A stretch of DNA of 64,000 nucleotides from a virus, in IMG/VR virus record IMGVR_UViG_3300027816_000055, one strand, 5' to 3'. Below the pieces are notes generated by a model that had not been told where the DNA came from, did no database searches, and worked only from the letters and a program-made list of their open reading frames with translations. How positions within the stretch are numbered: the stretch's first letter is position 1; each line of letters begins with the position of its first letter. This document shows positions 11,631-64,000 of this stretch, in pieces. The translations under genes and the position numbers were made by a program.

Positions 11631-12173
11631 ATATTTTATTAAATTACCGTTATTGTCATAATATCCGTCTACTGCAATACAATTTTCTGGACGCAATACC
11701 CATTTATTGATGTTGTCGGTTTGCTTACTAATAGCAAACAACGCATCGCAACTTTCATACGCCTGTTTATTCCACATTGGATATGGAAGATCGTCCCAAA
11801 TATCCAAATAAGTCAATGGAATTTTTCTACGAATTTGGTTTTCAATTGCATACAGCCAACCCCAATAACGAGGATCAGTAAAGTGCATAACGGCATCTGG
11901 TTTTTCTGCCTCCATAACAGCAAAAAGCATATTTTCATTACCATATCCATCGGTGGGATATAGTCGAACATATGCATCTTTAATTTTTAATTGATCATTG
12001 GTTGCTTGTGACAAATCTATAACTTTACCATTTTCAGGATGTTTGACCGCTCCTGCAATCTGCACCCAATTATAATGGTGTGCAGTACCCAAAATCAATT
12101 CACGACTCATAGTTGCAATACCACTATGCATGCGCAAATCATCACTCAACAATAGAATTTTCTTTTTTTGCAT
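11628..12173 (-). CDS. GT-B glycosyltransferase, N-terminal half of a split gene
   Basis: KILLLSDDLRMHSGIATM, DAVMHFTDPRYW, WDDLPYP, ISKQT. Lacks the C-terminal EGFG domain, which is in the next ORF. Confidence 0.8.
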   Translation of the reverse strand: MQKKKILLLSDDLRMHSGIATMSRELILGTAHHYNWVQIAGAVKHPENGKVIDLSQATNDQLKIKDAYVRLYPTDGYGNENMLFAVMEAEKPDAVMHFTDPRYWGWLYAIENQIRRKIPLTYLDIWDDLPYPMWNKQAYESCDALFAISKQTDNINKWVLRPENCIAVDGYYDNNGNLIKY

Positions 12174-19645: not shown

Positions 19646-21700
19646 ATGGATACGTCAAAATTTAATCTATTACCAGAGAGAATATTATCAATTCCAGATA
19701 AAAGAATTGCATATATAAGCGCAATTGGCACAAGTGGATATGCTACTGCGGCAAAGGGGTATATTTACAATCATGTAAAAAACAAAGACTATGTGCAATG
19801 GTTACAATATGACATTGCTAGTACAACGCCATTAAATGAAAATACTAATTTTGATTTATATATATCCAAATCAAAAAAAGTAATACTGTCAACTCCATCC
19901 ACAATTATAGTTCATTCCATACCTTTAGTATGGAATGAACTTATTTCTAACAGTAAATTTAACATTACTGATAAAACACAGATTATTGGAAGAACCGTTT
20001 GGGAGTTTGAAAAAGTACATCCTGATTGGATTGATAGTATTAATAACAGTGTTGTAACTCATGTTAGCGTTCCCACTGAATGGAATAAAAATATATTTTT
20101 AAAGGCAGGTATATTTAAGCCTATTATTGTTGAACCGCATATATTTGTTGACTTTCAAAATCAATTATATACGATTGAACACTTACTAAAGAAAAGTGTA
20201 GTTTTAATAAAATCTGACATTAAATTGTTAAATATAAAAGATTATTATAAATTCTATTGTATAGAACAATTGACAGATAGAAAGAATTTAATTGCAACAT
20301 TGCATTCTTATTGTAAAGCATTTAAATCAACTGACAAAGTTGCACTATTTTTAAAAACATTTAGATCAAATTATTCAATACAAGAACAAGTCGAGTGTGC
20401 TAAATATTTAAATGAATTATCTGCTCAATATCCCGATCACGCACCTATTGTATATATTAAAGAACAATTAAATCATGATGAAGTACACAGTATGCATTAT
20501 CATTTTGATTGTTATGTAAGTTTAACTCACACTGAAGGATTTGGTCTTAGCATTTATGACGCATATAAACACAATAAAAATCTTATTGTAACTGGATATG
20601 GAGGTCACGTTGAATATTTAGGAGAAAATTATTCGGGATTGGTCAGATATAACACATCCCCAGTAAATTCATACATAACTCAAAAACATTATTTAAATGA
20701 AGATTATGTATGGGCTAATGCTGATGAAAATCATGCAATTGAACTGATGCAGAACGCGTATCAGAATGGAATGGAATCAGAAAAATATTGTGTATCAAAT
20801 TTTACATTAAATAATAATTCCATACCAATTCAAATTCAAAATTCAAATGTTAAGTTGTTAAACTTACCATATGATGCAAATAATTTTTATTTTAATCCAG
20901 CAATATTTAAATTTAATAATAATAAATATTTGATGACTAGATATTGCCATATTGATGAAGATAAAATTCCACATAACACGTTAAAATTATTTAACTTAAA
21001 TGAAGGAATAAAAGAAATTCCGTTAAAAATTAAAGATGAAGTTCAAGACGAACAATATGAAGATCCAAGAGTATTAATTCATCAAAATAAAATTTATGTG
21101 GGATGTGCAAATTATCAATTACATGTTTCTGAAAAGATACATCAAAAAATATTAGTATTTGATAGTGCGTTTAATCATATTGAAAATATTCATCCTGTAT
21201 ATGACGGTAATTCATCTAATTGTTTAAGTAATACTCGTTCCCAAAAAAATTGGACATATTTTGTACATGATGATAAAATTCTATGTGTGTATCAAATGCA
21301 TCCACACACAGTTATAGAATTTGATAACACCGGTCGTATATTGACTGAATACAAAACTTTTGTTGATATTACTAAAACATGGCGCTTTGGAGAACCGCGC
21401 ATGGGCAGTAATCCAATTCTGAAAGATGGTATATACTATAATTTCTTTCATAGTAGCGTTCCTTGGAAAAATCCTAAACGACAATATTTTATGGGATATT
21501 ATACATTTGAAGCTAAACCTCCATTTAAAATTATTGAAATCTCAAAGGAGCCTATTATTTGGGGAAATGAATCGGATTTTAGATTTTTACCAAATTTTAA
21601 TCCAATTGTTGTATTTCCATGTGGAGCTATTTATGAAGATAATAGTTTTTATGTTAGTTTTGGATTTAATGACGAAAAGACAGGAATTATAAAATTATGA
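19646..21700 (+). CDS. fusion of GT4-like glycosyltransferase and five-bladed beta-propeller glycoside hydrolase/phosphorylase (GH130-like)
   Basis: N-half has GRTVWE, RKNL, SLTHTEGFGLSIYDA; C-half has FYFNPAI, YEDPRV, QKNW, VVFPCGAI, YVSFGFND. Confidence 0.78.
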   Translation: MDTSKFNLLPERILSIPDKRIAYISAIGTSGYATAAKGYIYNHVKNKDYVQWLQYDIASTTPLNENTNFDLYISKSKKVILSTPSTIIVHSIPLVWNELISNSKFNITDKTQIIGRTVWEFEKVHPDWIDSINNSVVTHVSVPTEWNKNIFLKAGIFKPIIVEPHIFVDFQNQLYTIEHLLKKSVVLIKSDIKLLNIKDYYKFYCIEQLTDRKNLIATLHSYCKAFKSTDKVALFLKTFRSNYSIQEQVECAKYLNELSAQYPDHAPIVYIKEQLNHDEVHSMHYHFDCYVSLTHTEGFGLSIYDAYKHNKNLIVTGYGGHVEYLGENYSGLVRYNTSPVNSYITQKHYLNEDYVWANADENHAIELMQNAYQNGMESEKYCVSNFTLNNNSIPIQIQNSNVKLLNLPYDANNFYFNPAIFKFNNNKYLMTRYCHIDEDKIPHNTLKLFNLNEGIKEIPLKIKDEVQDEQYEDPRVLIHQNKIYVGCANYQLHVSEKIHQKILVFDSAFNHIENIHPVYDGNSSNCLSNTRSQKNWTYFVHDDKILCVYQMHPHTVIEFDNTGRILTEYKTFVDITKTWRFGEPRMGSNPILKDGIYYNFFHSSVPWKNPKRQYFMGYYTFEAKPPFKIIEISKEPIIWGNESDFRFLPNFNPIVVFPCGAIYEDNSFYVSFGFNDEKTGIIKL

Positions 21701-31766: not shown

Positions 31767-32095
31767 ACGATACCGAATCATATCCAACTGCTGATTTTAA
31801 TCAATTGTTATTGAGAAAAATGCAACAACCAGTTGCTAGTGTACCGCATGAATTTGATCCATATCAAGCATTGTTAAAAAGAAAAAAACAACAGGACAGT
31901 GGAGAATTGCCACCTATCAAAAATATCAATCCCGATGACTTGTATGAGCTACAACAATTCTGTCAAACACACGGTATTGTCGGATTCAATTGTGGTAAAA
32001 TGAATCCAAGAGCAGCATTACAAATGTTAAAATCACGTATGGGAATTAAAGAAAATCCCGCCACTTCTGTCCAGAAAAAAATATTATTAGGTTAA
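31763..32095 (+). CDS. hypothetical protein
   Basis: ATGA-coupled; last plus-strand gene, convergent with the fibre genes. Confidence 0.6.
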   Translation: MNDTESYPTADFNQLLLRKMQQPVASVPHEFDPYQALLKRKKQQDSGELPPIKNINPDDLYELQQFCQTHGIVGFNCGKMNPRAALQMLKSRMGIKENPATSVQKKILLG

Positions 32096-32961
32096 CTCCA
32101 ACGGGCCTTTGGTATTCTAGTCCATATGTTGTTTGTATAGATATAAACATAATGATCATCAAATCTCATTTCTCCGGGCATGCCACTATCTGTACTATTT
32201 GTTGGAGCACTTCCGCTATTAGTTAATGAAAAATATACCACACTTGCTGTATTTGCTGTGACTACATTAAGTGAACTGGTTTGTACTACTGTTAAATTAC
32301 TTGCGGTGGCAACACTACCGCTAAAATAACTACTTGTCATTGAACTGGTAGATCCACTTGCTAACGCATCACTAACAAATTGACCAATATATTGATATAC
32401 AGTTGCATAAACTCGGTTTGATGGTACCGTTGATCCCGAGAATTGCAATACACCGGTTTTATAATCAAATGCATAGTTGCTTGCTGTCCAATTCGTAAAC
32501 GTACTACCATTGGCTGATGTAAACAAAGCAATATTATAGCCCGGTGGATTACCATTGTTACTAGCATCTGCTGTTTGATTTGCAATGGTAGTTACACCAT
32601 ATTTTGGACTGATAAAATTTGTTTGTTGTCCATTGACAATCAATTGACTACCAGTACCAGAAACACTCCCCGTTGGACTCATAAAAAACCAAACACTATT
32701 TGCAGGTGATGTATCATTTGCTACTGTCAATGGAAATTTAAACCAGTATTTTAAAACACCTGTTGTTTGTGTCGTTCCCGCAGTTGCGCTTGAACTAAAT
32801 GGCAAACTTGCGCTTGGAATTAATGCAGTTTGTGACCAGATTTCATCGGCTCCCATTTGAATAGTAGAAGTAAATGCTTCTTGAGAGTCCGATAAATCGG
32901 TAGTTGTATAACGTCGTCCTACCAATAATCTTGCTGCTTTTGTTAGAAGGTCAAATGCCAT
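32092..32961 (-). CDS. Ser/Thr-rich virion structural (fibre-like) protein
   Basis: S/T/G-rich beta-type sequence, FDYKTGVLQF, and the C-terminal GEMRFDDHYVYIYTNNIWTR motif common in fibre tips. Confidence 0.6.
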   Translation of the reverse strand: MAFDLLTKAARLLVGRRYTTTDLSDSQEAFTSTIQMGADEIWSQTALIPSASLPFSSSATAGTTQTTGVLKYWFKFPLTVANDTSPANSVWFFMSPTGSVSGTGSQLIVNGQQTNFISPKYGVTTIANQTADASNNGNPPGYNIALFTSANGSTFTNWTASNYAFDYKTGVLQFSGSTVPSNRVYATVYQYIGQFVSDALASGSTSSMTSSYFSGSVATASNLTVVQTSSLNVVTANTASVVYFSLTNSGSAPTNSTDSGMPGEMRFDDHYVYIYTNNIWTRIPKARWS

Positions 32962-32962
32962 G

Positions 32963-35900
32963 TTATGAAAGTTTTTCTATTTTAATGCTTGTAATTGGAG
33001 TTGGACTTCCGTTGTAACGAATTAGTAAATAAATTTCATCCTGTGCCGTATTAGTGTTATCCAATATTGCACCGTCAGCAGCTCTTGTTGGAAATATAAA
33101 TATACCACTTGAGTTACTTGCACCTGTGCCGTTGTTTCCGTATAAATCAATATTTGATCCAAATGGATTTACACCACTTGTACTTAAGTTGGAAGGTGCT
33201 ACACTAGATGATATTACGTTGGTTGATAAATTATTTACATCATACAAACGGCATCGAGCATAAACATTACTATTTGCGCTTTCAAATAAAATAGCCATTG
33301 CCACACTATTTGATGCAGTAGAATCCCAATTTACCAATGAAGTATTTCCCGTGAGTGTAATTTGTAATTTATTAACAACGACATTACTCTTGAATCTACG
33401 TACATAATATTTGTATGTTGTACCATATCCACTTGGATACCAATAACCATTTGAGCCACCCGGATTTACTAAAAATCCGGGTTTGACTTGTAAAGATGAC
33501 GTAGCCAATACAGAAGCACTGTTAAACGATGATCCGCTCATATTTAACATATTGTCAGCTAATACGATGCGATTTGCTTCGTCCAGCAACTGTTCTGTAA
33601 TTGCACCCGGATTCAATGATTGTGAACCAAACGTTAAAGATGATGTCACGTAGCCTTCTGGTCTTCCAAAATACAATAAACTACCACTTGAAGCTGGTGT
33701 ACCAAATGATCCTGCTGTGTGAACATTGTATGTTTGGGATCCTACGACAGTTCCGCTGCCTGCTCTATTGTATGTAGTTGTAGATACGGCGAAGGTTGAA
33801 AATGACGAACCTGAACTTGCAGCATTGCTACCTGTTCCACCCGCATTTAGAGTCAAATCAAATACAACAACATCACTTTCAAACGGATAACTACCAACGG
33901 TGCGAGTGGTAACATAATCTGATGATTTTACAACACCCGCAGTTTGAATAGTTGGATTTGTAGTTAATGACGAGCTATTTGGAGTAACAAACCCAAGGGT
34001 GGCATTTGTAAAAGATACACTTGACACGATTCCATTATAATATAATGGATTAAATGCTCCGCTTGATGTTATAGTATAGCGATAACTAGATCCGCTTGTT
34101 AAATATGGTGCTCCACTCAAACTTCTTGTGACAGCACTAATATAACTACCGGAACTACTTGGTGAAGTAATAGTTTGGGTAAATGAGCCATCCGTTAACG
34201 GTGTATAATAATAAGTTACTGTGGATGGAGTATAAACTCTATATGCTGAACTACCAGAACTAATACCAATACTTGCACTAAACACATAGATACCACTGCT
34301 GCTAATGTTTGATAATGCAATACTATTGGTTAAATTAGAACCAGTGAAATTACTGAAATATCCATCTTGATAAACAGGAGGAATAACTGCTATATTTGCT
34401 GATGGCACTGTATTAAGTGCAATTGGCGTGGCAATTGACGGTGTTAAATTAGTTGTCGATTGACTTAGAATAATCGATGCAGAATTATTTGTATAATTAA
34501 TTGTGCCGGCACTACTTGATGCAAATGTTAATCTAAAAGATCCGCTAAGATTTACTTGTGTAATATTATTACTAGTTAATGGCCCCAATCCAAATGCACT
34601 GCTACCTAAACTTGAACTTACAGTTGTACTACCACCAACAGTGCTTGCATAACTTATATATGCAGCACCACTATTAAATGTATAACCACTAAAAATTGTC
34701 GATCCAATTGTTGCCCATCCAAGCGGCTGCAAATATAAAATATTTGAGTTGGTACTTCCAGATGGAACTCTACCATTAATAGTTACAGTAGAACCAAATC
34801 CAGTGTTTGTACCAGTTACTCCGCTAAAAGTTCGTGTATTTGGACTTGGTATCGGATAACTTGCGCTAAACGCTCCTGCAAAAAATCTAACGATATCTGA
34901 TACATTTGTATTAGAGTTCCAAGTACTAAAATAAGATCCTGTCATACTATCGCCCCATGGATAATTATCAGCCGGCGTTCCAACATTTATGTTTGATCCA
35001 GAATAACGACCGTAAAAATTAAAACTTCCACTATTATTTTGTACATTTATAATGCTCTGTGTTTGAATTAACAATAAAGGTACATTCGATACACTTGAAC
35101 TTATAAAATTATCGGTCGCAGCAACAAATGTTTGTGTATTTGGACTTGAAATGAGATTTCCATTTACATTTAAATTTGAAATATATGATGCTGTTAGCGC
35201 ATAACTTGAACTTAAATTGTAACTTGATGAAACCACATTGTTTGCCCAACTGCTTGTAATCGGATATGTGCTTCCTGTTATTAAATTTGTTCCACCCGTG
35301 CTACTTGATATAAACAAACTTGAAGTCGCTACGCATAGATTTTTATTAACATTATCCCAAGTTACTACGTAATCTACATCGTTAATATTAGTTGCTGGTG
35401 AGCAATCAAAATTATTTACTTTTATACTACCGGTAAAATTAGCTTCCGATGATACATTTAAAACACCAACTGTAATTGTTGATGTATCAAAGTTATTAAT
35501 AGGACTACTACTGCCGCTTGGATCAAATGCTTGAATTGTTCTTAAATTTGAGTACACAATGTTTGAATTTGCATCAAACAATTCTGCTTTAATATCAAAC
35601 AATTCATTTGGTTGATCAACCGGAAATGGAACTCGGATTGTATATGAAGCATAATTAAATCCATCAATTTTTTCTTGTTGAAGGGAAATATTGTTTATAA
35701 TTAAACTATTAAATTTTCTCGGTACAATTACAATCGTTCCAAATAAATCATTTAATGGAGTAAACTTAAATTTTAATGTATTATTAAAATTTCTAGATAT
35801 AACAGCATCCGCGACCTGAATATTTCCTAACAATACGCCATATACTTCATTATAATTTTTTTCTTTTTTATTATTTGGATACGATCCTATTAAATAAATT

Positions 35901-37309
35901 GACAAATCCATCGAATCTGTCGCATTTTTTTCTAATAAATTACAATTAAAACTTAAAATATAATTTGTTTTTCCTAATAATTTAATAAAATTACAATCAT
36001 ACGCCGCTCCTCTTTGATCTAAATATTCATATTTATCATATGGAATATATGTTGCATCACGATAAGATCCAGTGGTATCTAGTTTTACAATAATATAACC
36101 ATCGTTTATAGAAGATCCCGTGATTTTTAGTCCATTGATATAGTACTGTGAGTCTTCAAATAATTGAAAACTATTAGAGCTTGTAAACCAAAATTTATTA
36201 ATAAAATCCTGCGAATAAAAGTTACCTAAATTTTGATAACTCTTTATAGGAACATTATAATTTTTTAAATATTCAAATTGATTAAATGATTCATCAACGA
36301 CAGTGGTATAGTCTTCGGGTACATTTAAACTTCTTTTATATAATTTATGCCGTGTAACAGTTCCACTAAAAGTATCAATATTTCTATACGTAACTTCGGC
36401 AATTGAATTTTTTTTGTATCTAACATTTCCAGAAAAATCAACACTTTCCGTCAAATAGCTTGCTGTTGTAAAATATACTGGATTATAGTCATACTCTGAA
36501 TATAAAATTTCATATGTTCCGTCTATAATTTCTGTGACAGAATTTTTATTATTTGCTGAATTTTTATAAATAAAAGGTGAGTCTAATTGTAAAGTCGTTG
36601 AATTAATTACATTTTTAATTAAAATTGATGACGTTGCATTTACATTCTGCTCCTGTCCTGTCAATGTGTTTTTAATTTTACTGACATATAGGGTCGCATA
36701 AAAATTTTTAAAACTTGAAGAAAATACAGAATTTGTAGCAATTAATTGATAGTCTGTATATGACTTATTATATTTATTGTCCTCAACATTAAAATTAACA
36801 ATTGGATATCCCGCTTTTGTGTAAAATGAGCCGGTGGCGGTTTTTGGATTTGCCTCATTTAAATTTGTTTTTGTAACAAATGTCAACAATGGTGTTACTT
36901 CTATCTGAGGCGTTGAATAAAATGCTACGTTACTATTATTAATTACAGAATTATTAATATATATATTTGTTGAATATCTTACTACTTTATTTTTAAAAGT
37001 ACCAACAATATACAATTTTCCTATACCAGTTGGGTTTTTTTGATAAACATGGAATGAATATATATTTTTTTGACTCTTATTTACAATATCTACATCTGTC
37101 GCTTTTTCATAGTATAGCTCTATACCATTTGCATCATAAGCCTCAATCTTGATATCATTAGGTGGATTATTGATTATAATACTATTTTTACCTAATCCAA
37201 AATTGCTATCAAATCCGGAAATTAAAAAATATGTAGACGACATCAATGAATTGTCGTCTACATCTACTTTAAGTCGGCTTAAGCTCTTACCAGTCTGGAA
37301 TTGTGACAT
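32963..37309 (-). CDS. large virion structural protein with very Ser/Thr-rich C-terminal half (tail fibre-like)
   Basis: About 1450 aa; SSWANNVVSSSYNLSSSYALTASY hinge followed by about 800 aa dominated by S/T/G. Start set at MSQFQ (37309). Confidence 0.65.
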   Translation of the reverse strand: MSQFQTGKSLSRLKVDVDDNSLMSSTYFLISGFDSNFGLGKNSIIINNPPNDIKIEAYDANGIELYYEKATDVDIVNKSQKNIYSFHVYQKNPTGIGKLYIVGTFKNKVVRYSTNIYINNSVINNSNVAFYSTPQIEVTPLLTFVTKTNLNEANPKTATGSFYTKAGYPIVNFNVEDNKYNKSYTDYQLIATNSVFSSSFKNFYATLYVSKIKNTLTGQEQNVNATSSILIKNVINSTTLQLDSPFIYKNSANNKNSVTEIIDGTYEILYSEYDYNPVYFTTASYLTESVDFSGNVRYKKNSIAEVTYRNIDTFSGTVTRHKLYKRSLNVPEDYTTVVDESFNQFEYLKNYNVPIKSYQNLGNFYSQDFINKFWFTSSNSFQLFEDSQYYINGLKITGSSINDGYIIVKLDTTGSYRDATYIPYDKYEYLDQRGAAYDCNFIKLLGKTNYILSFNCNLLEKNATDSMDLSIYLIGSYPNNKKEKNYNEVYGVLLGNIQVADAVISRNFNNTLKFKFTPLNDLFGTIVIVPRKFNSLIINNISLQQEKIDGFNYASYTIRVPFPVDQPNELFDIKAELFDANSNIVYSNLRTIQAFDPSGSSSPINNFDTSTITVGVLNVSSEANFTGSIKVNNFDCSPATNINDVDYVVTWDNVNKNLCVATSSLFISSSTGGTNLITGSTYPITSSWANNVVSSSYNLSSSYALTASYISNLNVNGNLISSPNTQTFVAATDNFISSSVSNVPLLLIQTQSIINVQNNSGSFNFYGRYSGSNINVGTPADNYPWGDSMTGSYFSTWNSNTNVSDIVRFFAGAFSASYPIPSPNTRTFSGVTGTNTGFGSTVTINGRVPSGSTNSNILYLQPLGWATIGSTIFSGYTFNSGAAYISYASTVGGSTTVSSSLGSSAFGLGPLTSNNITQVNLSGSFRLTFASSSAGTINYTNNSASIILSQSTTNLTPSIATPIALNTVPSANIAVIPPVYQDGYFSNFTGSNLTNSIALSNISSSGIYVFSASIGISSGSSAYRVYTPSTVTYYYTPLTDGSFTQTITSPSSSGSYISAVTRSLSGAPYLTSGSSYRYTITSSGAFNPLYYNGIVSSVSFTNATLGFVTPNSSSLTTNPTIQTAGVVKSSDYVTTRTVGSYPFESDVVVFDLTLNAGGTGSNAASSGSSFSTFAVSTTTYNRAGSGTVVGSQTYNVHTAGSFGTPASSGSLLYFGRPEGYVTSSLTFGSQSLNPGAITEQLLDEANRIVLADNMLNMSGSSFNSASVLATSSLQVKPGFLVNPGGSNGYWYPSGYGTTYKYYVRRFKSNVVVNKLQITLTGNTSLVNWDSTASNSVAMAILFESANSNVYARCRLYDVNNLSTNVISSSVAPSNLSTSGVNPFGSNIDLYGNNGTGASNSSGIFIFPTRAADGAILDNTNTAQDEIYLLIRYNGSPTPITSIKIEKLS

Positions 37310-37337
37310 ACATATATAAATATATGTCATTTAGAGT

Positions 37338-40300
37338 TTATACGGCCATAATTTTAGAAAATCCACGCTCTTTCTTGATTTCTAATTGCTTATCAACCAT
37401 ATCTTTCATAGCATCCAAATGACTTACAACCCATACAAAATCAAATGTATTGCGGAAGTACGACAATAGAGATGACATTGAATTGAGATTCTCTTTATCA
37501 GCACATCCAAATCCTTCATCAATTGCTATGAAATTAGGACGCGGCAAATTGGAGATATTTATTAATGCTACACGTATTGCAAGAGATAACACAAACTTTT
37601 CCAAACCGCTACCCATTTCAATTGGCCATTTCTTTCCATCATAATTGATATGACCAATAACATTCTTTCCATCGGTTGTTAAATTGACAGTGAATTCAAC
37701 AATTTGATGTAAAATATTATTAATTTCCGATTCTATTGTCGGTAACGCTTTGCTAATAAGATTGTATGGAATGCCGTCGCGACTGATTGCCATCATGTAA
37801 TATGTGTATGCATGTTGTTGCAATTCCCATATTTTTGCATTTTTAATTTGTTCTTCATAATTGGCTTTTTGTTCGTTTGCCAACATCAATTTTCCATTCA
37901 AATCTGAAATTTTACGAGTTGCTGTCTTTATTAGACTATCTAATTTATTAATATTGTCTTTTATTATTTTTATTTTTTCGTTTGTATTCTTATTAGACTC
38001 AATTGCATCTTTTTGTTTATAATACAAGGTAATGTCTTGTTCTAGAGTCAGAAGTTGATTCTCAAACTGAACAAGTTTTGTGGAATTTTTCAAAAACTCC
38101 GAGTTAGCATAATTATATTTTCTTTCCAGATCAGATTTTCTCTGAATAAGTTCATTGACTTTTTGGTTTTTTTCAACAACATCAGAAACCAAATTAATAT
38201 CATCAATTAGATTATCTTTACGAAGGGTTAATGATTCAATTTCTATCTGAATCTTGTTGTATTCCTCACCTGTTTTATTGATGTGATCTGCGTGTTTTTT
38301 GTTTGCTTTTACGCAAAAAGAACAATGCGGATCATACTCCATATTACTTCCAAAACTAGATAATATTGATTTTTTGGATGCTTTTTCTATGGTTTTCTTG
38401 TCAATTTCATTTTGAATCTTTTGAAGATCGCGATTCAAATTATCATAATGAGTTGTATTAGTTTTTAGTTTAATCAGATCAAACTTGTTTAATTCAATGT
38501 CAATTGCATCAATGACATGTTTTAACTTTTCAACCAATTGTTTAATCGATATATTATTTTCTGCCAAGGTATTTTTTTCAGAAATTATCTTCTTTTGAGT
38601 AGACTCCAACAAAATAATATTAGTCGGAGCATTGCCAATATTTATAATATTGGCCATTTCTTCCATTAATCTTTCATTTTCATATTTAAATTTAGATTCG
38701 ACTTTATCTAATTCAATATTTTCAGTCTCAAGATTTTTCTTTAATACAACAATTTCCTGAATTCTCTGTTCAAGTAATTTTGGATAATCGGTTTTATTAT
38801 AATTTTTAAGGAGTGTAGTAATTTCTTTGCTTTCAGACTTGGCAATTTGATCCAATTGATCGTATACTGTAATTCCCATGAATTTGGCGATCAAATCTTT
38901 ACGATCTGCCTGCCCCATATCAATGAAATTACCTACGCTATTATTTTGAATGCTTAATACAGTTAGTAGAAAATCATCGTATGTACCAATATAATCACGT
39001 ATAACATCATTTGTATTACGTCGTGCCTCGCCATTTAAATCGATCATTTTGTTGTCTTTATCTAATTGATAAAATTTTACATCAACTTTGACATTTCCTT
39101 TTTTGTCCTGAACACCAACTCGTTCAATAAAATAATCAACTCCCTCAATTTCAAAATTAAATTTGCAATTGAAGCTCATTTTTTGTGTATTCAAAACATG
39201 AACCGCTTTAAATGCACGATCACATTTATCAAACAAACAGTACGATAATGCAGACAAAATACTACTCTTACCGCTTGCATTTGCAGCAAATAATCCAATT
39301 AATCCTTTGAGTGTAGTAAAGTCAATCACATTGCCTTCTCCATAAGAGAACATATTTTCAAACTCAAACCGCTTTGGCTTCCAACGAATATTACGAGGAA
39401 CAAGTTCTTTTTCTAGCTTACCATTGACATCTTTATTGATTTCAAAAATCTGATCAATCAATTCTTCAGTCATTACTTCGCGTTTCTTTTCTAACAAAAA
39501 CTCTTTGATCAATTGATTTTGATAATCAACATTTGATGCAATACTGATAAGATTGATATTTGTAGTATCAATGATATTTTTCTTTTCTTCATCTGTGTTG
39601 ATTTTATCATATGTAATTTCAATTAATTCATGCTTTTTGCTCATTTTTGCCATCAAAGATTTTACTTCTGACGGAATTGTTTCTTTACATTTTGCTCTTA
39701 ATGTAACTTTTTTAGGCATGCTGCTTACATCAGTCAGCAATTTACCCTTTTCAATTTCTACGGTAAAAAATCCGTAGTCATTTGGCAATTCTACATGTGT
39801 ATATTCATGATGTTTAATGTCCCATATTACATATCCGTGTTTCTCTAAAGCTTCACCATGATTCTGTTGAATCATAGATCCCGCGTATAGAATAACAGGT
39901 TTATTATAATTGACACTATGTTCTTGAAGTCTCTGAAATTTATGAATATCTCCCAACAAAACAATATCATGACCGTCAAAACTATCATTTGATACTGTTT
40001 TACTCACCACTCTATATCCAACATCAGTGGTAGCACCTTGAACAGGACCATGAAATAATGCGATTCGTGAATCAGTCTCGTTAATTAGTTTTTTAGGAAT
40101 GTTAGCCGCAGGAATATACTTTGTATAATCATCAAATACAGAATAATGATTGAATAACAAATTTCCCAACACAAACAAGCCACTTTCTTTAAGATAAAAT
40201 AGGTGTGGGTGGTTCAATGGTTCAACTACTGAAGTTAAACTATCCAATCTAGTTTTATTGTTTAATGTTGCATCGTGATTGCCTGAAATAAGAATGGTTG

Positions 40301-40553
40301 TACGTTTATCAGCAATTGTCTTCAGAAAATCACTGGCTAATTTAAGCGATTCTGGAACCAAGTCAGTTTTATTATGAAATAAATCTCCTAGAATTGCAAC
40401 AACGGTTGTTTCTGGAGTTTTATCTATCTCTTTATAAAATTTTTCAAATACTTCACGATATTCTTCATGTCGCTTTAACAGACGAATGTGAATGTCCGCC
40501 ACATGAACTATGTGAGTAAATTTTTTTACATTTGTATTTAAATACTTTGTCAT
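37338..40553 (-). CDS. fused SbcD/Mre11 (gp47-like) nuclease and SbcC/Rad50 (gp46-like) SMC ATPase
   Basis: HVADIH, ILGDLFH, SGNHD, LGDIH (phosphoesterase); AANASGKSS (Walker A), CSFC (zinc hook), MGSGLE (signature), IAIDEGFG (Walker B), VVSH. Confidence 0.93.
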   Translation of the reverse strand: MTKYLNTNVKKFTHIVHVADIHIRLLKRHEEYREVFEKFYKEIDKTPETTVVAILGDLFHNKTDLVPESLKLASDFLKTIADKRTTILISGNHDATLNNKTRLDSLTSVVEPLNHPHLFYLKESGLFVLGNLLFNHYSVFDDYTKYIPAANIPKKLINETDSRIALFHGPVQGATTDVGYRVVSKTVSNDSFDGHDIVLLGDIHKFQRLQEHSVNYNKPVILYAGSMIQQNHGEALEKHGYVIWDIKHHEYTHVELPNDYGFFTVEIEKGKLLTDVSSMPKKVTLRAKCKETIPSEVKSLMAKMSKKHELIEITYDKINTDEEKKNIIDTTNINLISIASNVDYQNQLIKEFLLEKKREVMTEELIDQIFEINKDVNGKLEKELVPRNIRWKPKRFEFENMFSYGEGNVIDFTTLKGLIGLFAANASGKSSILSALSYCLFDKCDRAFKAVHVLNTQKMSFNCKFNFEIEGVDYFIERVGVQDKKGNVKVDVKFYQLDKDNKMIDLNGEARRNTNDVIRDYIGTYDDFLLTVLSIQNNSVGNFIDMGQADRKDLIAKFMGITVYDQLDQIAKSESKEITTLLKNYNKTDYPKLLEQRIQEIVVLKKNLETENIELDKVESKFKYENERLMEEMANIINIGNAPTNIILLESTQKKIISEKNTLAENNISIKQLVEKLKHVIDAIDIELNKFDLIKLKTNTTHYDNLNRDLQKIQNEIDKKTIEKASKKSILSSFGSNMEYDPHCSFCVKANKKHADHINKTGEEYNKIQIEIESLTLRKDNLIDDINLVSDVVEKNQKVNELIQRKSDLERKYNYANSEFLKNSTKLVQFENQLLTLEQDITLYYKQKDAIESNKNTNEKIKIIKDNINKLDSLIKTATRKISDLNGKLMLANEQKANYEEQIKNAKIWELQQHAYTYYMMAISRDGIPYNLISKALPTIESEINNILHQIVEFTVNLTTDGKNVIGHINYDGKKWPIEMGSGLEKFVLSLAIRVALINISNLPRPNFIAIDEGFGCADKENLNSMSSLLSYFRNTFDFVWVVSHLDAMKDMVDKQLEIKKERGFSKIMAV

Positions 40554-53743: not shown

Positions 53744-55723
53744 TTATATTACGGCTCCTTTAACATCATTATCTGGATATTTTAGTTCAAAAACAGATGG
53801 ATCTAGTGATGGGTAAACAATTTTATTCAATGTTGCTTGGTCCAAGTTATATTCATGCGGTGAGTAATCACCGTCATTCATTGTTAAATTTTTAAACTTG
53901 ATTTCTACCACAGATTGAACACCTTCTACTTTTGCAATCTCAAGTTCCAATTGACTAATATTAATTGGTTGATTAAAAGTCCATTTATCAATAACAAAAA
54001 AATCTTTTACTTTTTGAATACATATATTCAAAACATCACGCTTATTATAGTTGTTAAATACAGATATTTTAAAGTCTACACCAAAATTAATAATATATCC
54101 ATCGATAATGTTGATACCATCTGTTAAAAGTTTATATTTTTCTAAATATTTACGTAAATTGTATAATAGTGCTTCATTAATGCTAGTCAAATTTTTATTT
54201 GAATTGTAACTTAACACATACAAATTGATGCTAAACGGATTGGAAATATCGTAGTTTACTTTACGAAAATAATTGGATACAGCATCATTCAATAATGTAA
54301 CTTGATCTATATTATCACTAAACCCACTTACATATTTATTGATATTTACATTTAAATTTGAATTAGAAACAACGTAAGCTTTTGCAATTGTTCCAAATCT
54401 AGGCGGAAGATTATAAATTCTAGAAGTATAATCGTCTGTTGTGACTGCTCTGTTCTGTGAAGCAAAATACGCAAGTGCATTTTGACGAATTTCGTCTACA
54501 CTTTCGGAATCTGCGCCGCCAGTCGCAGGCACTGGATTAGTTACACGCAGAGAATTTTTAACAGTTTGCATTAATGCCAATTGTGAAGGTGTCAATCCAC
54601 TTGTATCCGTGGCAAATTCCACTGAGACAATTGTTTTAATGTCATCCGAGGCACAATTACTCAATACACCGCCACCTACAATATATTTGATAGTGAGTGT
54701 AGTATTTGCAGGTGCTTGACCCATACTGTTTGTGTTTAACAATTTACTACTGTCATACGAAATATTTAAATTAGTAATGTTTTGTAGTCCAATGCCGACC
54801 AATTCTTGAGACGGATAAATGATTTCGTCAGACAAACTCTCAGTTCCGGGACCAAATTGTAAATATGTTACATTATTTGCATTTGTATTGACTGTAAATT
54901 TACGTGAAGTTATAAATGATTTCAGTAATTTTGGCACTTCGCTATTATATTGAAATAATACTCCATCGTTTACACTCGTATTTTCTTCTTCTGAAAAAAT
55001 TAAATCTTGAGCCAAATAATCTACTTGATACCATCTATTATTGTCACTGTCTCTTACCTCCAATACATCAATGACATTATTTTCATTTAGCGGAATATTT
55101 AAAAACGCTTGTGCATTATTTAAATTAAAACTTGCTACAACAATTCTACCTGCAATTGCACGTATTGATTTTTTTAATAAAAAGAATTGTGGTACTCCAT
55201 AATCATCGCGAGAATATACAGTTGATTCTCTTGGTGAATTTTTTGTGTCCACGGCAAAATTTACTGGATCCGTAGTTAAGTAATTTACTCCCGCGCTATT
55301 AACTAGTTGCATATATTCGCGCAAAGATAATGCATATGTATTGTCAGGTACATATTCTCCTGCGCTATTTTTGATTGATGGAACCAGTTGATAGATATCA
55401 ATTGTAGTAACTGCGGCTTTGGTTGGTTTGGTTTTATAACCAAGATAATTTGCCAACGCAATAACATTTTTGCGCTCGCCGGCATAATTTAACAAACTTT
55501 CTTTTAATTGATAATCACCATAGTAGGAAAGAACATCTCCAACATATGCAGCTTGTTCAATAAACATTGTTCCCGGCGAAGCAGTATTAAAGTCCTTGTA
55601 TGTATTTGGAAAATATGTCTGTGCATATTGAATTAATGCATCTCGAAAAGAATTGAAATCTTTATTAATATACTTCAAATCTTTTTTTCCGGTATTAAAT
55701 TGTTTTTGAATGATGTCAGCCAT
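53744..55723 (-). CDS. baseplate wedge subunit (T4 gp6 / baseplate J-like)
   Basis: YINKDFNSFRDALIQYAQTYFP...SPGTMFIEQAAYVGDVLSYY; ATGGADSESVDEIR; RAVTTDDY. Confidence 0.9.
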   Translation of the reverse strand: MADIIQKQFNTGKKDLKYINKDFNSFRDALIQYAQTYFPNTYKDFNTASPGTMFIEQAAYVGDVLSYYGDYQLKESLLNYAGERKNVIALANYLGYKTKPTKAAVTTIDIYQLVPSIKNSAGEYVPDNTYALSLREYMQLVNSAGVNYLTTDPVNFAVDTKNSPRESTVYSRDDYGVPQFFLLKKSIRAIAGRIVVASFNLNNAQAFLNIPLNENNVIDVLEVRDSDNNRWYQVDYLAQDLIFSEEENTSVNDGVLFQYNSEVPKLLKSFITSRKFTVNTNANNVTYLQFGPGTESLSDEIIYPSQELVGIGLQNITNLNISYDSSKLLNTNSMGQAPANTTLTIKYIVGGGVLSNCASDDIKTIVSVEFATDTSGLTPSQLALMQTVKNSLRVTNPVPATGGADSESVDEIRQNALAYFASQNRAVTTDDYTSRIYNLPPRFGTIAKAYVVSNSNLNVNINKYVSGFSDNIDQVTLLNDAVSNYFRKVNYDISNPFSINLYVLSYNSNKNLTSINEALLYNLRKYLEKYKLLTDGINIIDGYIINFGVDFKISVFNNYNKRDVLNICIQKVKDFFVIDKWTFNQPINISQLELEIAKVEGVQSVVEIKFKNLTMNDGDYSPHEYNLDQATLNKIVYPSLDPSVFELKYPDNDVKGAVI

Positions 55724-55726
55724 ACA

Positions 55727-56122
55727 TTATAAATTATTAGACGTAAATTCCATAGACACAGAATCTGTTTGTTGATTAACACTAAATATAATTTTTAGAT
55801 ATACTTTATAAGTATCAGTGAGCATGTTTTTTTCACTATTCGATATATTTAAATTTATATTTTCTACTGTTACACCCGGTATCCACATATTTATTTTGTT
55901 TTCAATAATACGTTTTATTAAATCGGGGGTATTTTGCAAATTTTGCTCAAACAATGCTTCTTGTAATCCAGAAGAAAATTGAGGTTGCATTCTTCGTTCA
56001 CCACTATTGGTACGTAAAAGATTAATAATGTTACTTTTGATCTGTGTCATTGTATCATATGACTGATCAAAATATCCATTATTTCCTCTAGTTAAAGGTA
56101 ATACTAGTCCAATAGGTTTCAT
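55727..56122 (-). CDS. baseplate wedge / sheath initiator (T4 gp25-like)
   Basis: QIKSNIINLLRTNSGERRMQPQFSSGL...LFE; directly upstream of the gp6-like gene. Confidence 0.88.
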   Translation of the reverse strand: MKPIGLVLPLTRGNNGYFDQSYDTMTQIKSNIINLLRTNSGERRMQPQFSSGLQEALFEQNLQNTPDLIKRIIENKINMWIPGVTVENINLNISNSEKNMLTDTYKVYLKIIFSVNQQTDSVSMEFTSNNL

Positions 56123-60084: not shown

Positions 60085-61077
60085 TTAAAAACTGAAAGGA
60101 TATGGCTTTGAACTTGGTTGGGGAGGTGCAACGACCGGTGTAGGTGTAACCGTCAGTTCTTCTGATTTAATAGTACTAGATTCCGGTATAATATTTGATG
60201 CATCAGATTCTGTCTTCGGCACAGTACTATCAGGTACTACCTCATCGGGTTTATTTGGATCAACAATTAATTTTTCTTTAGATTTACTATCGGTAGACTC
60301 ATTTGAAATTGCAGTATTATAAGCCAATAACAAGCATACTGCCAATGGATCAAATACAGAAATTAATGCTACAATAAACCACTTTACTACTTTATTTATA
60401 TTGACGCCCAATTCATCCGCAACGAATTTAAAAGTTTGCACATCTTTTTTAGATCCACTTTCTAATTTTAGATTTGTGATTTGTTGGTCTAATTGCTGCA
60501 ATTCATCAGTTGATTTTTGAATTTTTCCAGTTTCGGTTTCCAAATCTCGGTCACTCTGTTCGATAAGTTCTTGTGTTTGTTGTTGAACTTGTCTTAATTG
60601 AATAGGATTTCTCGCAATTAAAGTGTTTGTCATACTTTGTGACAAACGCAATTCTTGACTATTACGTAGCTGAGTAACATTTAAAATTCTATTTTTTGAA
60701 GTGGAAATTTTTTCTCTAATTAATATTTTTTGTTCTTCAATTAATTGAATTTTTTGTTCAATTAACTGAGTTTCAAGACTGGATTGTTGATATGCACTAC
60801 TAAGATATCCAAAAATTCCTAACGAAGTAATAATCATCAATACAATAACAGATGTTGTTAAATATAATTTTAAAAATGTTTTTGTTTTATTCCAATAGCG
60901 ATATAAAAAACTAGTCGCGACCAATTTACCAAGTTCCAAAGAACTTGCCATAATCATCGCAGCAATTGCAGATCCACTAAACAACATTCCAATACCAACA
61001 ATACTAAAAAATGCCGCACATGATGCGATAAATAAAGAACTGAATCCTAATAAACGCTCAAAATTGATAAATTTCAT
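60085..61077 (-). CDS. multi-pass membrane protein with long coiled coil
   Basis: Three N-terminal hydrophobic helices (LELGKLVATSFL, SLGIFGYLS), a coiled coil, then FIVALISVFDPLAVCLLLA. Confidence 0.7.
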   Translation of the reverse strand: MKFINFERLLGFSSLFIASCAAFFSIVGIGMLFSGSAIAAMIMASSLELGKLVATSFLYRYWNKTKTFLKLYLTTSVIVLMIITSLGIFGYLSSAYQQSSLETQLIEQKIQLIEEQKILIREKISTSKNRILNVTQLRNSQELRLSQSMTNTLIARNPIQLRQVQQQTQELIEQSDRDLETETGKIQKSTDELQQLDQQITNLKLESGSKKDVQTFKFVADELGVNINKVVKWFIVALISVFDPLAVCLLLAYNTAISNESTDSKSKEKLIVDPNKPDEVVPDSTVPKTESDASNIIPESSTIKSEELTVTPTPVVAPPQPSSKPYPFSF

Positions 61078-61116: not shown

Positions 61117-62052
61117 TTATTCTATAGGATTTGGAGGTAACTGATTATCTAATGTATACTCGCTAATGTATTTATCGGCAAATCGAAGACCTGCATATGC
61201 TTCATAATCTGCTACTGTTCTTATATTACCAAATACATTTGTAATTTTATCAGATGTATTCTCCATTCCAAATAAAATTCTATGTTTCTTGGTTGATTTA
61301 GCATCATGTTCCCACCAAGATTGATTTATATTATTTCCACTTTTGACATTATCATCCCAGTGAGTAGGACGATATGTTCTTTTGTATTGATGCCATGCAA
61401 TTAATTTATGCGGATGATATAGATCATATCCATGTGTAAATCCACGAACAGCAATATTTGTTTCTTCGCCATAAAAATAGTAATCGGGATCATGTGGAAC
61501 TAATTTGCAAAAGTTACCATCTGTAAATGCAAAATGAGCACTGTAAAATCGCGCAGGTATAGGTGCTGTTAATTTATCTATATTCAAAATCGGTTCGGGC
61601 ACAAAAAATAATGGACCCTCATCCATAAATTTGTCTAACCGCATCTGCCATACTTCATGTAAATATTCTTCAGTCAACGCATCATAGTTTGGAAGATATG
61701 TGGTTAATAAAGGGAGATCACTTCCCATATTTTTACATTGTTGATACATTTGTAACAACAAACTATCCCATCCTTTTACGAATCTATGATGACTATCCAA
61801 ATGAAGTGTATATTCTTCATTATTATATTTTTGTTGAATTAAATTACGTGCCCAACAAACTCCTTTACTATCAACATAAGGAATATCAATATATTCTATT
61901 AAATGTTTTATAGGGTCAATAGATTCTAAATCATCATGCTGCCATGCCACGACAATACGTAATTGAGTTGGATCATCAGCTTTTTCAACCAAATCCAAAA
62001 CAGTAGGTATTAATTCGGGATCTCTATAACTCGCTATTTGAACAAAAATCAT
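61117..62052 (-). CDS. GT60-like (Pfam GlcNAc-type) polypeptide/Skp1 alpha-GlcNAc transferase homologue
   Basis: IFVQIASYRDPEL, GVCWARN, LHLDSHHRFVKGWD, LLTTYL, SAHFAF, VPHDP..YFYGEE, RGFTHGYDLYHP. Confidence 0.85.
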   Translation of the reverse strand: MIFVQIASYRDPELIPTVLDLVEKADDPTQLRIVVAWQHDDLESIDPIKHLIEYIDIPYVDSKGVCWARNLIQQKYNNEEYTLHLDSHHRFVKGWDSLLLQMYQQCKNMGSDLPLLTTYLPNYDALTEEYLHEVWQMRLDKFMDEGPLFFVPEPILNIDKLTAPIPARFYSAHFAFTDGNFCKLVPHDPDYYFYGEETNIAVRGFTHGYDLYHPHKLIAWHQYKRTYRPTHWDDNVKSGNNINQSWWEHDAKSTKKHRILFGMENTSDKITNVFGNIRTVADYEAYAGLRFADKYISEYTLDNQLPPNPIE

Positions 62053-62384
62053 GGATATAACGACGACGGATACGCAACAACGGCAGATACATCGCCCGGC
62101 AAAGATTCTATTGTAACATCATAAATAACACTGTTAACAGTTACATTGACAACTGTTGCAGCAACAGTTGCATTTGAAACATATGAATTAACAACAGATA
62201 TCATAGCTGTTTTTGCATCGGCAGAAAGCGATGTGCTTGCGTTAATTTGAGAATTTAAATTTGATTTTACAGTTGCTGCATTCCATGAAAAACTGTAATA
62301 TGAAAAAATTCCAGAACCTGCTCCACCTCCTCCACCTCCACCGCTTGAAGCAGTTATAGCATTCCAATATGCAAAACCAATCAT
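62049..62384 (-). CDS. small S/A/V-rich structural protein with poly-Gly linker
   Basis: MIGFAYWNAITASSGGGGGGGAGSG...; follows the fibre gene. Confidence 0.55.
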   Translation of the reverse strand: MIGFAYWNAITASSGGGGGGGAGSGIFSYYSFSWNAATVKSNLNSQINASTSLSADAKTAMISVVNSYVSNATVAATVVNVTVNSVIYDVTIESLPGDVSAVVAYPSSLYP

Positions 62385-62387
62385 ATA

Positions 62388-63698
62388 TTAATACATGTTT
62401 TGCACAGCAGTTGCATATATCACTGTGTTGTTTGGTGCTGTAGATCCACTTGGTCCCAATGTAGATGTGTTCACGGCAATAAATGTGAAAAAATCTGCTC
62501 TGTTTAAAGTACCGGTTGTAATTGCTGGTTGAACACCATTTCTCCACACAATAGGACAGTCATAATATATACTACCACTATAAAGTGCTCCTTTAAACAT
62601 TAAACTTGCGGTTGGAGTAGTTGCTGCTTGATTAACAACTACATTTAATTGTTGACCACGACTCATTGTTATAGATGCAGTTCCGTGGTTATTCAATTGA
62701 AGAAATCTAGTTGCTGCACTGGAAGCATCCAAGTATAGAGTTTCTTGAGCAGTTGCAATTCCATCGTAGTCTGCGCTTTTTAACGTAACTCCACCATTAA
62801 CTATCAACTCATTTCCAATATAAGTTTTTCCACTGCTACTTACACAAAAAGTTGTGTCAAGGCTACTGCTGCCATAACGAACTTCAATAGCTTTTTGTAT
62901 ATGATATGTTTGAGGATTGCTTACACTACTACCACTGTATACGTTAATTAAGAAACGAGTGTCTGTGTTTGCCGTTCCTGAATCTACACCTACATTAAAT
63001 GTACCATCACGGGATATTGACTGTGCTCCTACCAAAGGCCACATATATATTCCATTACCAGCAATACGCATTGCACGAATTGTACCATTACCATCTGGAT
63101 CATTACCTTGTTTACTTATTAATTGATTTGATCCACTGTATGTTATCAAATCAAGCATGCCTCTTGCGCCTCCTGTATTTTCAGTTCCGCATGCCAATGC
63201 CCATGCGTCTGATGCACTATACATGCTTTGCATACTATATCCACAGTTGAATGTACCACGGGCATTAAAAAATGCCTGTCCGTTTTCAATTGCAATATTT
63301 TTATAACTTGAAACGTATCCTAATGATGCTGTGTAATATATACTTGAATCGCCTAACACCGTCGTACCGGTCCATATAGGTAAATAATTTACAGTTCCGT
63401 TACCGGCTATAATTCCCGCACTACCAGATAAATAACTAGCAGTTAACGCATAACTGGCACTAATAGTATTTCTAGAATAACTTGACGTAATTGCATAACT
63501 TGAGCTAATAGAATTATTTGCCCAACTTGAAGTGCCAATTAAAGATCCTGAAAAACTACCAGTAGACAATAGTGTTTGCAATTGTCCGAGTGTAGCACGA
63601 TATGTTAGTAAACTACTACTTCTGTCAATTGGAAAAAAATCTTCCGTTTTTAACAGCGCCGGAAATGTATTTAATTCGCTTATTTTAATAGTTGACAT
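62388..63698 (-). CDS. tail fibre-like protein
   Basis: N-terminal IKISEL...FFPID; SSWANNSISSSYAITSSY..SASYALTASY; GTVNYLPIWTGTTVLGDS; C-terminal W.NG..PAIT....D.FTF. Confidence 0.7.
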   Translation of the reverse strand: MSTIKISELNTFPALLKTEDFFPIDRSSSLLTYRATLGQLQTLLSTGSFSGSLIGTSSWANNSISSSYAITSSYSRNTISASYALTASYLSGSAGIIAGNGTVNYLPIWTGTTVLGDSSIYYTASLGYVSSYKNIAIENGQAFFNARGTFNCGYSMQSMYSASDAWALACGTENTGGARGMLDLITYSGSNQLISKQGNDPDGNGTIRAMRIAGNGIYMWPLVGAQSISRDGTFNVGVDSGTANTDTRFLINVYSGSSVSNPQTYHIQKAIEVRYGSSSLDTTFCVSSSGKTYIGNELIVNGGVTLKSADYDGIATAQETLYLDASSAATRFLQLNNHGTASITMSRGQQLNVVVNQAATTPTASLMFKGALYSGSIYYDCPIVWRNGVQPAITTGTLNRADFFTFIAVNTSTLGPSGSTAPNNTVIYATAVQNMY

Positions 63699-63701
63699 AG
63701 A

Positions 63702-64000
63702 TTATTTCCAAGTTCTAATTTTAATTTTCCATTTTGTAGGATCTAAATTGACGCGACCGCCAGTTTTTGCATGCGCATATACTCCACCGATCCAATTAGC
63801 CCATGATATACCAACTTGAGTTGAATTTGTCCAAACAGTTGTAATTGGACGTTCATCATCGGCTCCTCCTGAATCATCATGTAATTGTTCAACACTAATT
63901 TCATCATTTACCGCATATCCTTGATCAATTACTTGACATATTAAAGTCACACGCACAAGTGAAGGAGTTGCTGCAAATCCATGGTTTACCGCATAATAAA
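63702..64000 (-). CDS. 3' end of a fibre-like gene running in from the right edge
   Basis: The frame stays open to 64000: ...YYAVNHGFAATPSLVRVTLICQ...WKIKIRTWK. Confidence 0.65.
   Translation of the reverse strand, partial: YYAVNHGFAATPSLVRVTLICQVIDQGYAVNDEISVEQLHDDSGGADDERPITTVWTNSTQVGISWANWIGGVYAHAKTGGRVNLDPTKWKIKIRTWK

Follow-up and report, generated by a model that had tools for sequence, protein, structure and literature searches.

A GT60-family glycosyltransferase gene coupled to fibre-like genes in an uncultured jumbo phage: a candidate route to cytoplasmic O-glycosylation

A 64,000-nucleotide stretch of the IMG/VR virus record IMGVR_UViG_3300027816_000055 (the window; 64 kb, G+C approximately 30%) encodes a glycosyltransferase (GT) of family GT60 at 61117-62052 on the minus strand, immediately downstream of a set of fibre-like genes. 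Retention of this gene order in the window's clade, together with enrichment of Ser/Thr-rich proteins upstream, and only upstream, of GT60 genes in other clades, supports the view that GT60 and the protein or proteins encoded just upstream of it are functionally linked. From these sequence comparisons we consider the chance somewhat better than even that the fibre-like proteins are direct substrates for O-glycosylation by GT60 in the cytoplasm. The source is a large, uncultured freshwater phage of the jumbo myovirus type, as an identical copy of the 436-residue fibre-like protein (62388-63698) is present on a 319,024-bp contig and the window encodes a T4-type replication and virion gene set that includes baseplate genes.

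The 311-residue product of 61117-62052 matched Pfam family PF11397 ('GlcNAc') with an E-value of 1.5e-64 and a score of 219.1 bits (cut-off 21), and phrog_24687 ('glycosyltransferase') with an E-value of 4.6e-104. PF11397 was present in all GT60 homologues listed, and in 48 of these the residues corresponding to D86, S87, H88 and H89, an Asp-x-His type metal motif, were invariant, with YFYGEE and HPH motifs invariant or nearly so. When an AlphaFold2 (AF2) model of the protein (pLDDT 93.3) was compared with the PDB using Foldseek, almost all of the top 40 or so matches were GT27 polypeptide GalNAc-transferases, including GalNAc-T2, T4, T10, T12 and T1, fly PGANT9 and Toxoplasma GalNAc-T3 (best E-value 5e-10), with a template modelling (TM) score of approximately 0.57 on the query and sequence identities of 13–16%. 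A first-pass annotation, made by a model from the DNA letters, had described GT60 enzymes as relatives of polypeptide GalNAc-transferases, and the fold matches bear this out. PDB searches with the single sequence and with a profile returned no match, indicating that there is no GT60 structure at the sequence level. These data identify 61117-62052 as a short-form GT60 enzyme with a GT-A fold of the polypeptide GalNAc-transferase type. According to a review, GT60 is the protist equivalent of GT27, minus the ricin-like domain, and the GT60 enzymes that have been characterized modify proteins (PMC8724618). The window protein also has no C-terminal ricin-like lectin or other extra domain, ending approximately 25 residues past the last modelled helix, and since a hydropathy scan detected no transmembrane segment in its 311 residues it would be cytoplasmic, as is Dictyostelium Gnt1. 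Most viral homologues are longer (410–435 residues) and carry an uncharacterized C-terminal domain of approximately 110 residues, examples being L006:5986-7266, L027:6983-8287 and most of loci L016-L087, whilst members of the window's clade (approximately 310 residues) lack it. As animal GT27 enzymes carry their lectin domain at the same end, the additional domain could be a targeting domain.

The GT60 gene is closely linked to candidate virion genes on both sides. Its ATG overlaps the TGA of a 111-codon open reading frame (ORF; 62049-62384, minus strand) in an ATGA junction, and gaps of 3 nt separate this ORF from the 436-codon fibre-like gene at 62388-63698 (62384/62388) and the latter from a second fibre-like gene at 63702-64000 (63698/63702), confirming the coupling reported in the first-pass annotation. 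A terminator scan, itself at chance level, found no terminator-like site between GT60 and the upstream genes; scans for sigma-70 promoters, terminators and T4 late promoters (TATAAATA) all performed at chance level, and a transcript map was therefore not derived from them. Approximately 5 kb downstream, on the same strand, lie genes for gp6-like (53744-55723, minus strand) and gp25-like (55727-56122, minus strand) baseplate wedge proteins, the 53744-56122 block matching phrog_6 and phrog_219 (E-values of approximately 1e-17) and phrog_43 (E-value 2.5e-12). The GT60 locus thus lies at the head of a same-strand virion gene block.

For the 436-residue protein encoded at 62388-63698 (minus strand) at least 258 homologues were found, every one of them unnamed and of viral or metagenomic origin, and many match only its first 67%; its N-terminal two thirds are conserved, whilst the C-terminal third has been exchanged from one relative to another. 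Its identity between close relatives is 48–73%, as against 80–97% for the products of flanking genes, a rate of divergence that fits a host-range determinant. The AF2 model has low confidence over Ser-rich stretches at residues 45–94 and 254–290 (and 223–235) and high confidence over a beta domain at residues 300–436. Foldseek matches to this model in the PDB included a phage capsid spike, tailspikes and T4 gp34, gp9 and gp10, and in BFVD there were 221 matches with E-values of 1e-3 or below, the named ones being tail fibres or collagen-repeat proteins; TM-scores were low in both databases. No match to the protein was found by tblastn against 50,697 phage records. Of the second fibre-like gene only the last 98 codons lie within the window (63702-64000, minus strand). 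These are 84% identical to the C-terminus of L004:3533-4651, and full-length homologues in close relatives (357–406 residues; 357–374 in the closest) have an N-terminus resembling that of the 436-residue protein; the family is viral only, with Mtd_N and Phage_fiber_2 as weak structural leads. The small Ser/Thr/Gly-rich 111-residue ORF, lying between the 436-residue protein gene and GT60, has a full-length homologue of 57% identity at the same place in locus L026, and an ORF of the same cluster occupies the equivalent position in L089 and L090; most relatives lack it. It weakly matched phrog_8482 ('attachment protein', E-value 0.001). This conservation suggests that the ORF is real at least as a conserved reading frame, and it is possibly an acceptor or a fibre accessory protein. 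No Pfam or PHROG family was assigned to any of the three upstream genes. Low-TM Foldseek matches and the same-strand baseplate genes nearby make 'fibre-like virion appendage' a reasonable but unproven label for these proteins, with moderate support. The first-pass description of them as Ser/Thr-rich is borne out for the 111-residue ORF and the 436-residue protein (24.3% Ser+Thr each; window mean 14.5%) and fails for the visible 98 codons of the third (14.3%), whose full-length homologues nonetheless contain 23–31%. The 436-residue protein appears the most likely acceptor of GT60.

Conservation of the arrangement was assessed by searching IMG/VR from both the GT60 side and the fibre side. In the window's clade the gene order is PhoH, a fibre-like protein of approximately 370 residues, a second fibre-like protein of approximately 350–500 residues, GT60, Hsp20 and/or a membrane/coiled-coil protein, and then a block extending to the baseplate genes. 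The PhoH/fibre-like/fibre-like/GT60 order was intact in 24 of the 29 loci with room downstream of the fibre-like gene. Directly downstream of GT60 in the window is the gene for the membrane and coiled-coil protein (60085-61077, minus strand; 330 residues), which has three hydrophobic segments and a short Pro/Ser/Thr tail. This family is kept downstream of GT60 or Hsp20 in 21 loci and is retained in relatives lacking GT60. The tail is acidic and Lys/Glu-rich in the window's clade and Pro-Thr-rich in homologues from L028, L038, L043, L073 and L077, which belong to phages with upstream Pro-Thr-tract proteins. The protein was considered as an acceptor and rejected, its tail being Pro-Thr-rich only in other clades and its gene persisting without GT60.

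GT60 genes are widespread in viral metagenomes, where at least 568 stretches were confirmed in IMG/VR and 6,427 protein clusters matched with an E-value of 1e-5 or below, whilst only four of the 50,697 isolated phage records, all of Xanthomonas or Stenotrophomonas jumbo phages, contain one. Gene neighbourhoods were compared in 85 viral loci with a recovered GT60 ORF, drawn from the best 80 per collection and based on simple ORF calls and blastp clusters, a Ser/Thr-rich neighbour being defined as a same-strand protein with at least 20% Ser+Thr. Such a gene was present at position -1 in 32 of the 85 loci and at -1 or -2 in 49, but at +1 in none of 82, against a background of 6.6%. Proteins with Pro-Thr tracts showed the same one-sided distribution (-1 in 22/85, -2 in 12/82, -3 in 6/80 and +1 in 0/82). 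Their association with GT60 was significant by Fisher test (odds ratio 9.3, p=2e-11), including when a single locus was taken per 75%-identity GT60 lineage (odds ratio 7.9, p=5e-5). Clustering by sequence divided the upstream proteins into 22 unrelated groups, those of more distant clades containing long Pro-Thr/Ser repeats of mucin or linker type, and Pfam searches with 38 upstream Ser/Thr-rich proteins of other loci gave only single Ig and InlB-repeat matches, in one member each. A FastTree phylogeny built from 84 GT60 sequences places the window in a clade of 22 with good support; 20 of its members have upstream proteins that are rich in Ser/Thr but free of Pro-Thr tracts, and the other two have neither type by the criteria used. 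The Pro-Thr type arises in several places in the other GT60 clade, at least four of them forced by well-supported branches, and trait changes on the tree number 12 as against approximately 27 with shuffled labels.

GT60 homologues were also found in at least 337 of 185,579 bacterial species genomes. In all five Burkholderiales genomes tested (Burkholderia, L174; Achromobacter, L138; Paraburkholderia, L162; Ralstonia, L179; Paraherbaspirillum, L153) a gene for the type VI spike protein VgrG (PF05954) lies approximately 3–7 kb from GT60, and in four of the five this is the best-scoring VgrG match of the genome. ORF maps of the same five genomes place a Pro-Thr-tract ORF at the VgrG position near GT60. 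These genomes are an independent setting in which GT60 is paired with Pro-Thr-bearing, phage-tail-like proteins.

A mechanism consistent with these observations is that GT60, as a soluble, cytoplasmic, metal-dependent GT-A glycosyltransferase, would transfer a first sugar, most likely an N-acetylhexosamine (HexNAc) from a UDP-sugar, to Ser/Thr hydroxyls. Its targets would be extended Ser/Thr-rich stretches of the 436-residue protein, of the neighbour of approximately 370 residues and perhaps of the 111-residue ORF, and transfer would occur before or during joining of the fibre-like proteins to the virion. The benefit could be protease resistance, fibre stiffness or hydration, or masking. The analysis establishes the GT60 assignment, an intact metal motif, a GalNAc-transferase-like fold, close coupling to the upstream genes and retention of their order; a virion location, the acceptor protein, the sugar and the benefit are what we infer. 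Of the priming of fibre Ser/Thr residues put forward in the first-pass annotation, the part that synteny and fold support is the functional link to the upstream proteins.

Several observations weigh against this mechanism. Among relatives of the window, GT60 is broken in L103 (L103:3484-4292), with loss of approximately 40 residues (108–147) and a frame change, and is cleanly absent from L098, L100, L101 and L123; the slot without GT60 is flanked by the fibre-like gene on one side and on the other by Hsp20, or by a membrane/coiled-coil gene in the case of L123. The fibre-like protein keeps 28–30% Ser+Thr in the close relatives L098, L100, L101 and L103. In approximately 40% of viral GT60 loci no neighbour is Ser/Thr-rich, and the gene there adjoins ribonucleotide reductase, HtrL-type enzymes or DNA polymerase, as in phage XacN1. 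The fibre-like proteins of the window also lack Pro-Thr tracts, the strongest association elsewhere, and it may be that their Ser-rich repeats do no more than form the shaft of a fibre; a high Ser/Thr content is common in phage fibres that carry no sugars. Only low-TM-score fold matches and gene position place the upstream proteins in the virion, and sugars on them are predicted here from genes and models. As the window's fibres have Ser-rich repeats and no Pro-Thr tract, the term 'mucin-like' applied to this phage in the first-pass annotation overstates the case. The synteny comparison proposed there as a check was upheld by the conserved gene order and the upstream-only enrichment, although not in the loci without a Ser/Thr-rich neighbour. 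As GT60 is kept in 24 of 29 loci yet absent or broken in five relatives, it is best interpreted from these comparisons as a conserved but dispensable accessory cassette at this spot and not as an essential assembly factor. A 69-kb relative without GT60 (G002) is syntenic with the window over 32–64 kb only.

The main rival explanation takes this dispensability further and holds that GT60, as a mobile accessory gene, arrived in a variable slot bounded by the fibre genes and Hsp20, that its target lies elsewhere (a host protein, a distant phage protein or the host envelope) and that its adjacency to the fibre-like genes is positional. We regard this as unlikely, although it has to be taken seriously. 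As it would predict, close relatives have GT60 intact, cleanly missing or decayed at this slot without any change in the fibre-like protein. The variability of the region after PhoH among relatives, the viral loci lacking a Ser/Thr-rich neighbour and the position of GT60 near DNA polymerase and RNase H in phages XacN1 and RAS14 also fit it. A positional effect does not readily account for enrichment that is one-sided (at -1 and -2, never at +1) and extends over 22 unrelated upstream clusters and several GT60 clades, for the recurrence of the pairing with Pro-Thr-tract spikes in bacterial genomes, or for the overlap of the GT60 start codon with the upstream stop. O-glycosylation of the upstream proteins by an accessory GT60 therefore remains the reading we prefer.

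The first-pass annotation had further proposed that the other glycosyltransferases of the window, its methyltransferases and its rare-sugar pathways extend the sugar placed by GT60. Its count of about 12 glycosyltransferases from at least eight families is right in that the set is large, but Pfam scans identified 10 in seven families (GT2 x2, GT4 x3, GT6, GT8, GT25, GT60 and GT61), an additional weak GT4 match at 8562-9863 bringing the number to 10–11. Four methyltransferases were found where five had been counted, and neither a GT9 nor a fifth methyltransferase was seen among the window proteins in the Pfam scans. Nucleotide-sugar genes are present as claimed, encoding a 4,6-dehydratase, a DegT aminotransferase, a nucleotidyltransferase/haloacid dehalogenase (HAD) fusion and a split thiamine diphosphate (ThDP) enzyme. 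If the 10–11 glycosyltransferases, the four methyltransferases and the rare-sugar pathways did extend a GT60-primed sugar, a methylated heteroglycan would be built on the fibres without a lipid carrier, and such a full O-glycan assembly line would clothe the phage in glycans of its own making, much as in chloroviruses and mimiviruses. We consider this rather improbable. The GT2, 4, 6, 8, 25 and 61 enzymes and associated genes lie 30–60 kb from GT60 and show no synteny with it, and the frequent downstream partners of GT60 in the viral loci, namely HtrL_YibB/FkbM fusions (55 of 85 loci), Nol-type carbamoyltransferases and DUF5672 proteins, have no counterpart in the window (HtrL+FkbM, carbamoyltransferase and DUF5672 all absent). 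The sole resemblance to a partner is that of the window GT25 to a GT25-like protein of a few loci, at 29% identity. The distant glycosyltransferase island may contribute to the GT60-primed glycan, but we found no support for this.

The same gene set could instead indicate that GT60 and the other window glycosyltransferases act on a non-protein glycan, for example in remodelling of host lipopolysaccharide, capsule or cell wall, and large glycosyltransferase sets of cyanomyoviruses have been read as genes for cell-wall or DNA modification (PMC12801897). Some Joint Genome Institute (JGI) records also name GT60 homologues 'glycosyltransferase involved in cell wall biosynthesis'. This explanation appears very unlikely, since GT60 is 30 kb from the glycosyltransferase island in a separate gene block, its nearest solved folds act on peptides and characterized GT60 enzymes act on proteins (PMC8724618), and no phage priming transferase, flippase, polymerase or ligase of the families tested was found in the window or in complete relatives, although host enzymes could serve. 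The absence of a flippase or polymerase from the window, stated in the first-pass annotation, agrees with a hydropathy scan that detected no polytopic membrane protein there. Its suggestion that the same holds elsewhere in the genome was followed in complete relatives. Wzx (PF01943) and WecA/MraY (PF00953) were absent from two complete GT60-bearing genomes, G001 and G005 (296 and 297 kb, the former in the window's clade), and from three fragments, and Bac_transf (PF02397) and Wzy_C (PF04932) were absent from four complete GT60-bearing phage genomes (the same two and two of 230–233 kb) and one fragment; control searches matched 9–13 of 14 control genomes. On these searches the phages appear to encode no lipid-carrier machinery of the families tested, a result that counts in favour of direct transfer by GT60.

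A hydroxyproline route, in which a prolyl hydroxylase would supply the acceptor for GT60, was rejected for the window's clade. Pfam scans detected no 2-oxoglutarate-Fe(II) oxygenase among the window proteins, and the prolyl hydroxylase domain PF13640 was found in one of the four complete GT60 phage genomes (one fragment was also searched) and not in G001; a Skp1-type hydroxyproline route is therefore not general.

That GT60 glycosylates modified bases in the phage DNA as restriction protection, an idea prompted by the frequency with which phage glycosyltransferases modify DNA (PMC12619734) and by the nucleoside 2-deoxyribosyltransferase-like and dUTPase-domain proteins encoded in the window, is scarcely credible given a family and fold of polypeptide transferases and synteny with Ser/Thr- or Pro-Thr-rich proteins, DNA modification making no sense beside bacterial VgrG spikes.

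The remainder of the window contains further genes of the T4-type set and a number of unusual ORFs. The family-B DNA polymerase has its best isolated relative in Microcystis phage Mel-JY01 (43.7% identity), and a clamp-loader-like ATPase, a primase and a RuvC-like resolvase are present together with a 1071-residue ORF (37338-40553, minus strand) that appears to be a fused SbcCD-like nuclease with SbcD-like N-terminal and SbcC-like C-terminal matches. The acetolactate-synthase-like ThDP enzyme is split into two overlapping minus-strand ORFs, 335-2096 (N and M domains) and 3-338 (C domain), and is followed by a ketopantoate hydroxymethyltransferase-like gene that adjoins the 4,6-dehydratase and DegT aminotransferase genes; this group may represent a branched-sugar pathway. 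A 684-residue protein (19646-21700, plus strand) combines a GT4-type domain with a mannoside phosphorylase domain resembling glycoside hydrolase family 130 (GH130). The ORF at 10615-11619 (minus strand) encodes a GT4 C-terminal domain and is preceded by a 181-residue ORF with a weak match to the GT4 N-terminal domain (E-value 0.07), and 10615-12173 (minus strand) may therefore be a split glycosyltransferase. In the 237-residue protein at 9860-10573 (minus strand) the best Pfam stretch covers only the last 40 or so positions of the dUTPase profile (residues 156–194), and the match leaves the greater part of the protein unaccounted for. Two further Ser/Thr-rich proteins are encoded at 32092-37330 (minus strand; 289 residues with 28% Ser+Thr and 1455 residues with 24%), in convergent orientation to the adjoining end of the glycosyltransferase island; the smaller protein has weak tail-fibre PHROG matches.

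GT60, a mucin-initiating family of protist type, is thus common in large aquatic phages and repeatedly encoded next to Ser/Thr- or Pro-Thr-rich appendage proteins. No paper was found that links GT60 or PF11397 with phages or that describes the pairing of GT60 with Thr-Pro proteins, and to our knowledge the only phages documented to glycosylate their particles with enzymes of their own are some mycobacteriophages, XacN1 providing a hint from one staining experiment. Were the proposed O-glycosylation correct, it would mean that receptor-binding fibres and type VI spikes are tailored by a widespread mechanism that has so far gone unstudied, would add a large prokaryotic and viral branch to a family that is eukaryotic in the papers found so far, and could provide a simple cytoplasmic O-glycosylation tool.

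Among known systems, giant viruses such as the chlorovirus PBCV-1, with its capsid protein Vp54, use their own glycosyltransferases and sugar pathways independently of the endoplasmic reticulum (ER) and Golgi, as cited in a report on XacN1 (PMC5852040). The window likewise combines glycosyltransferase, methyltransferase and nucleotide-sugar genes, but those viruses are eukaryotic and their capsid glycans atypical and N-linked, and nothing here ties the glycosyltransferase island to GT60 or to a protein acceptor. In mycobacteriophages, according to a description of work by Freeman et al. (2023), enzymes encoded by the phage attach glycans to its own structural proteins while these are in the cytoplasm, at the C-terminal ends of capsid and tail-tube subunits (PMC12619734); here the candidate acceptors are instead fibre-like proteins, known from genes alone. 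The only isolated phages with a GT60 homologue among the 50,697 records are XacN1 (ORF334), Xoo-sp13, CM1 and RAS14, at 39–42% identity to the window enzyme (XacN1 41%). Theirs is the long form (457–478 residues, compared with 311) and adjoins carbamoyltransferase and HtrL-like genes near DNA polymerase rather than lying directly behind a fibre gene. Two glycosyltransferases have been reported in XacN1, with at least two Schiff-positive virion protein bands (periodic acid-Schiff, PAS) that the authors propose are made by the phage enzymes; they assigned no family to ORF334 and did not identify the bands (PMC5852040). One of these two glycosyltransferases, ORF334, is the GT60 homologue, and the staining, although from a distant GT60-bearing phage, counts in favour of the proposed link.

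The closest solved folds are those of GT27 enzymes (animal GalNAc-T2, T4, T10 and T12 and Toxoplasma GalNAc-T3), with which the window GT60 shares an Asp-x-His motif of the same form (D86-S87-H88) at only 13–16% identity, and from which it differs in having neither a lectin domain nor a Golgi anchor. The nearest precedents are the protist GT60 alpha-GlcNAc-transferases, comprising the mucin-type enzymes of Dictyostelium and Trypanosoma cruzi and the cytoplasmic Gnt1, which acts on hydroxyproline of Skp1. The window enzyme shares PF11397 with them and likewise lacks the ricin-like lectin domain of the animal enzymes (PMC8724618). Like Gnt1 it would be soluble and has no membrane anchor, and it also lacks the additional C-terminal domain of most viral homologues. 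The Skp1 route requires a prolyl hydroxylase, of which the window has none. The phage GT60 differs further from its protist relatives in being phage-encoded and in acting, as predicted, in the bacterial cytoplasm, with candidate Ser/Thr- or Pro-Thr-rich acceptors encoded beside it across phages.

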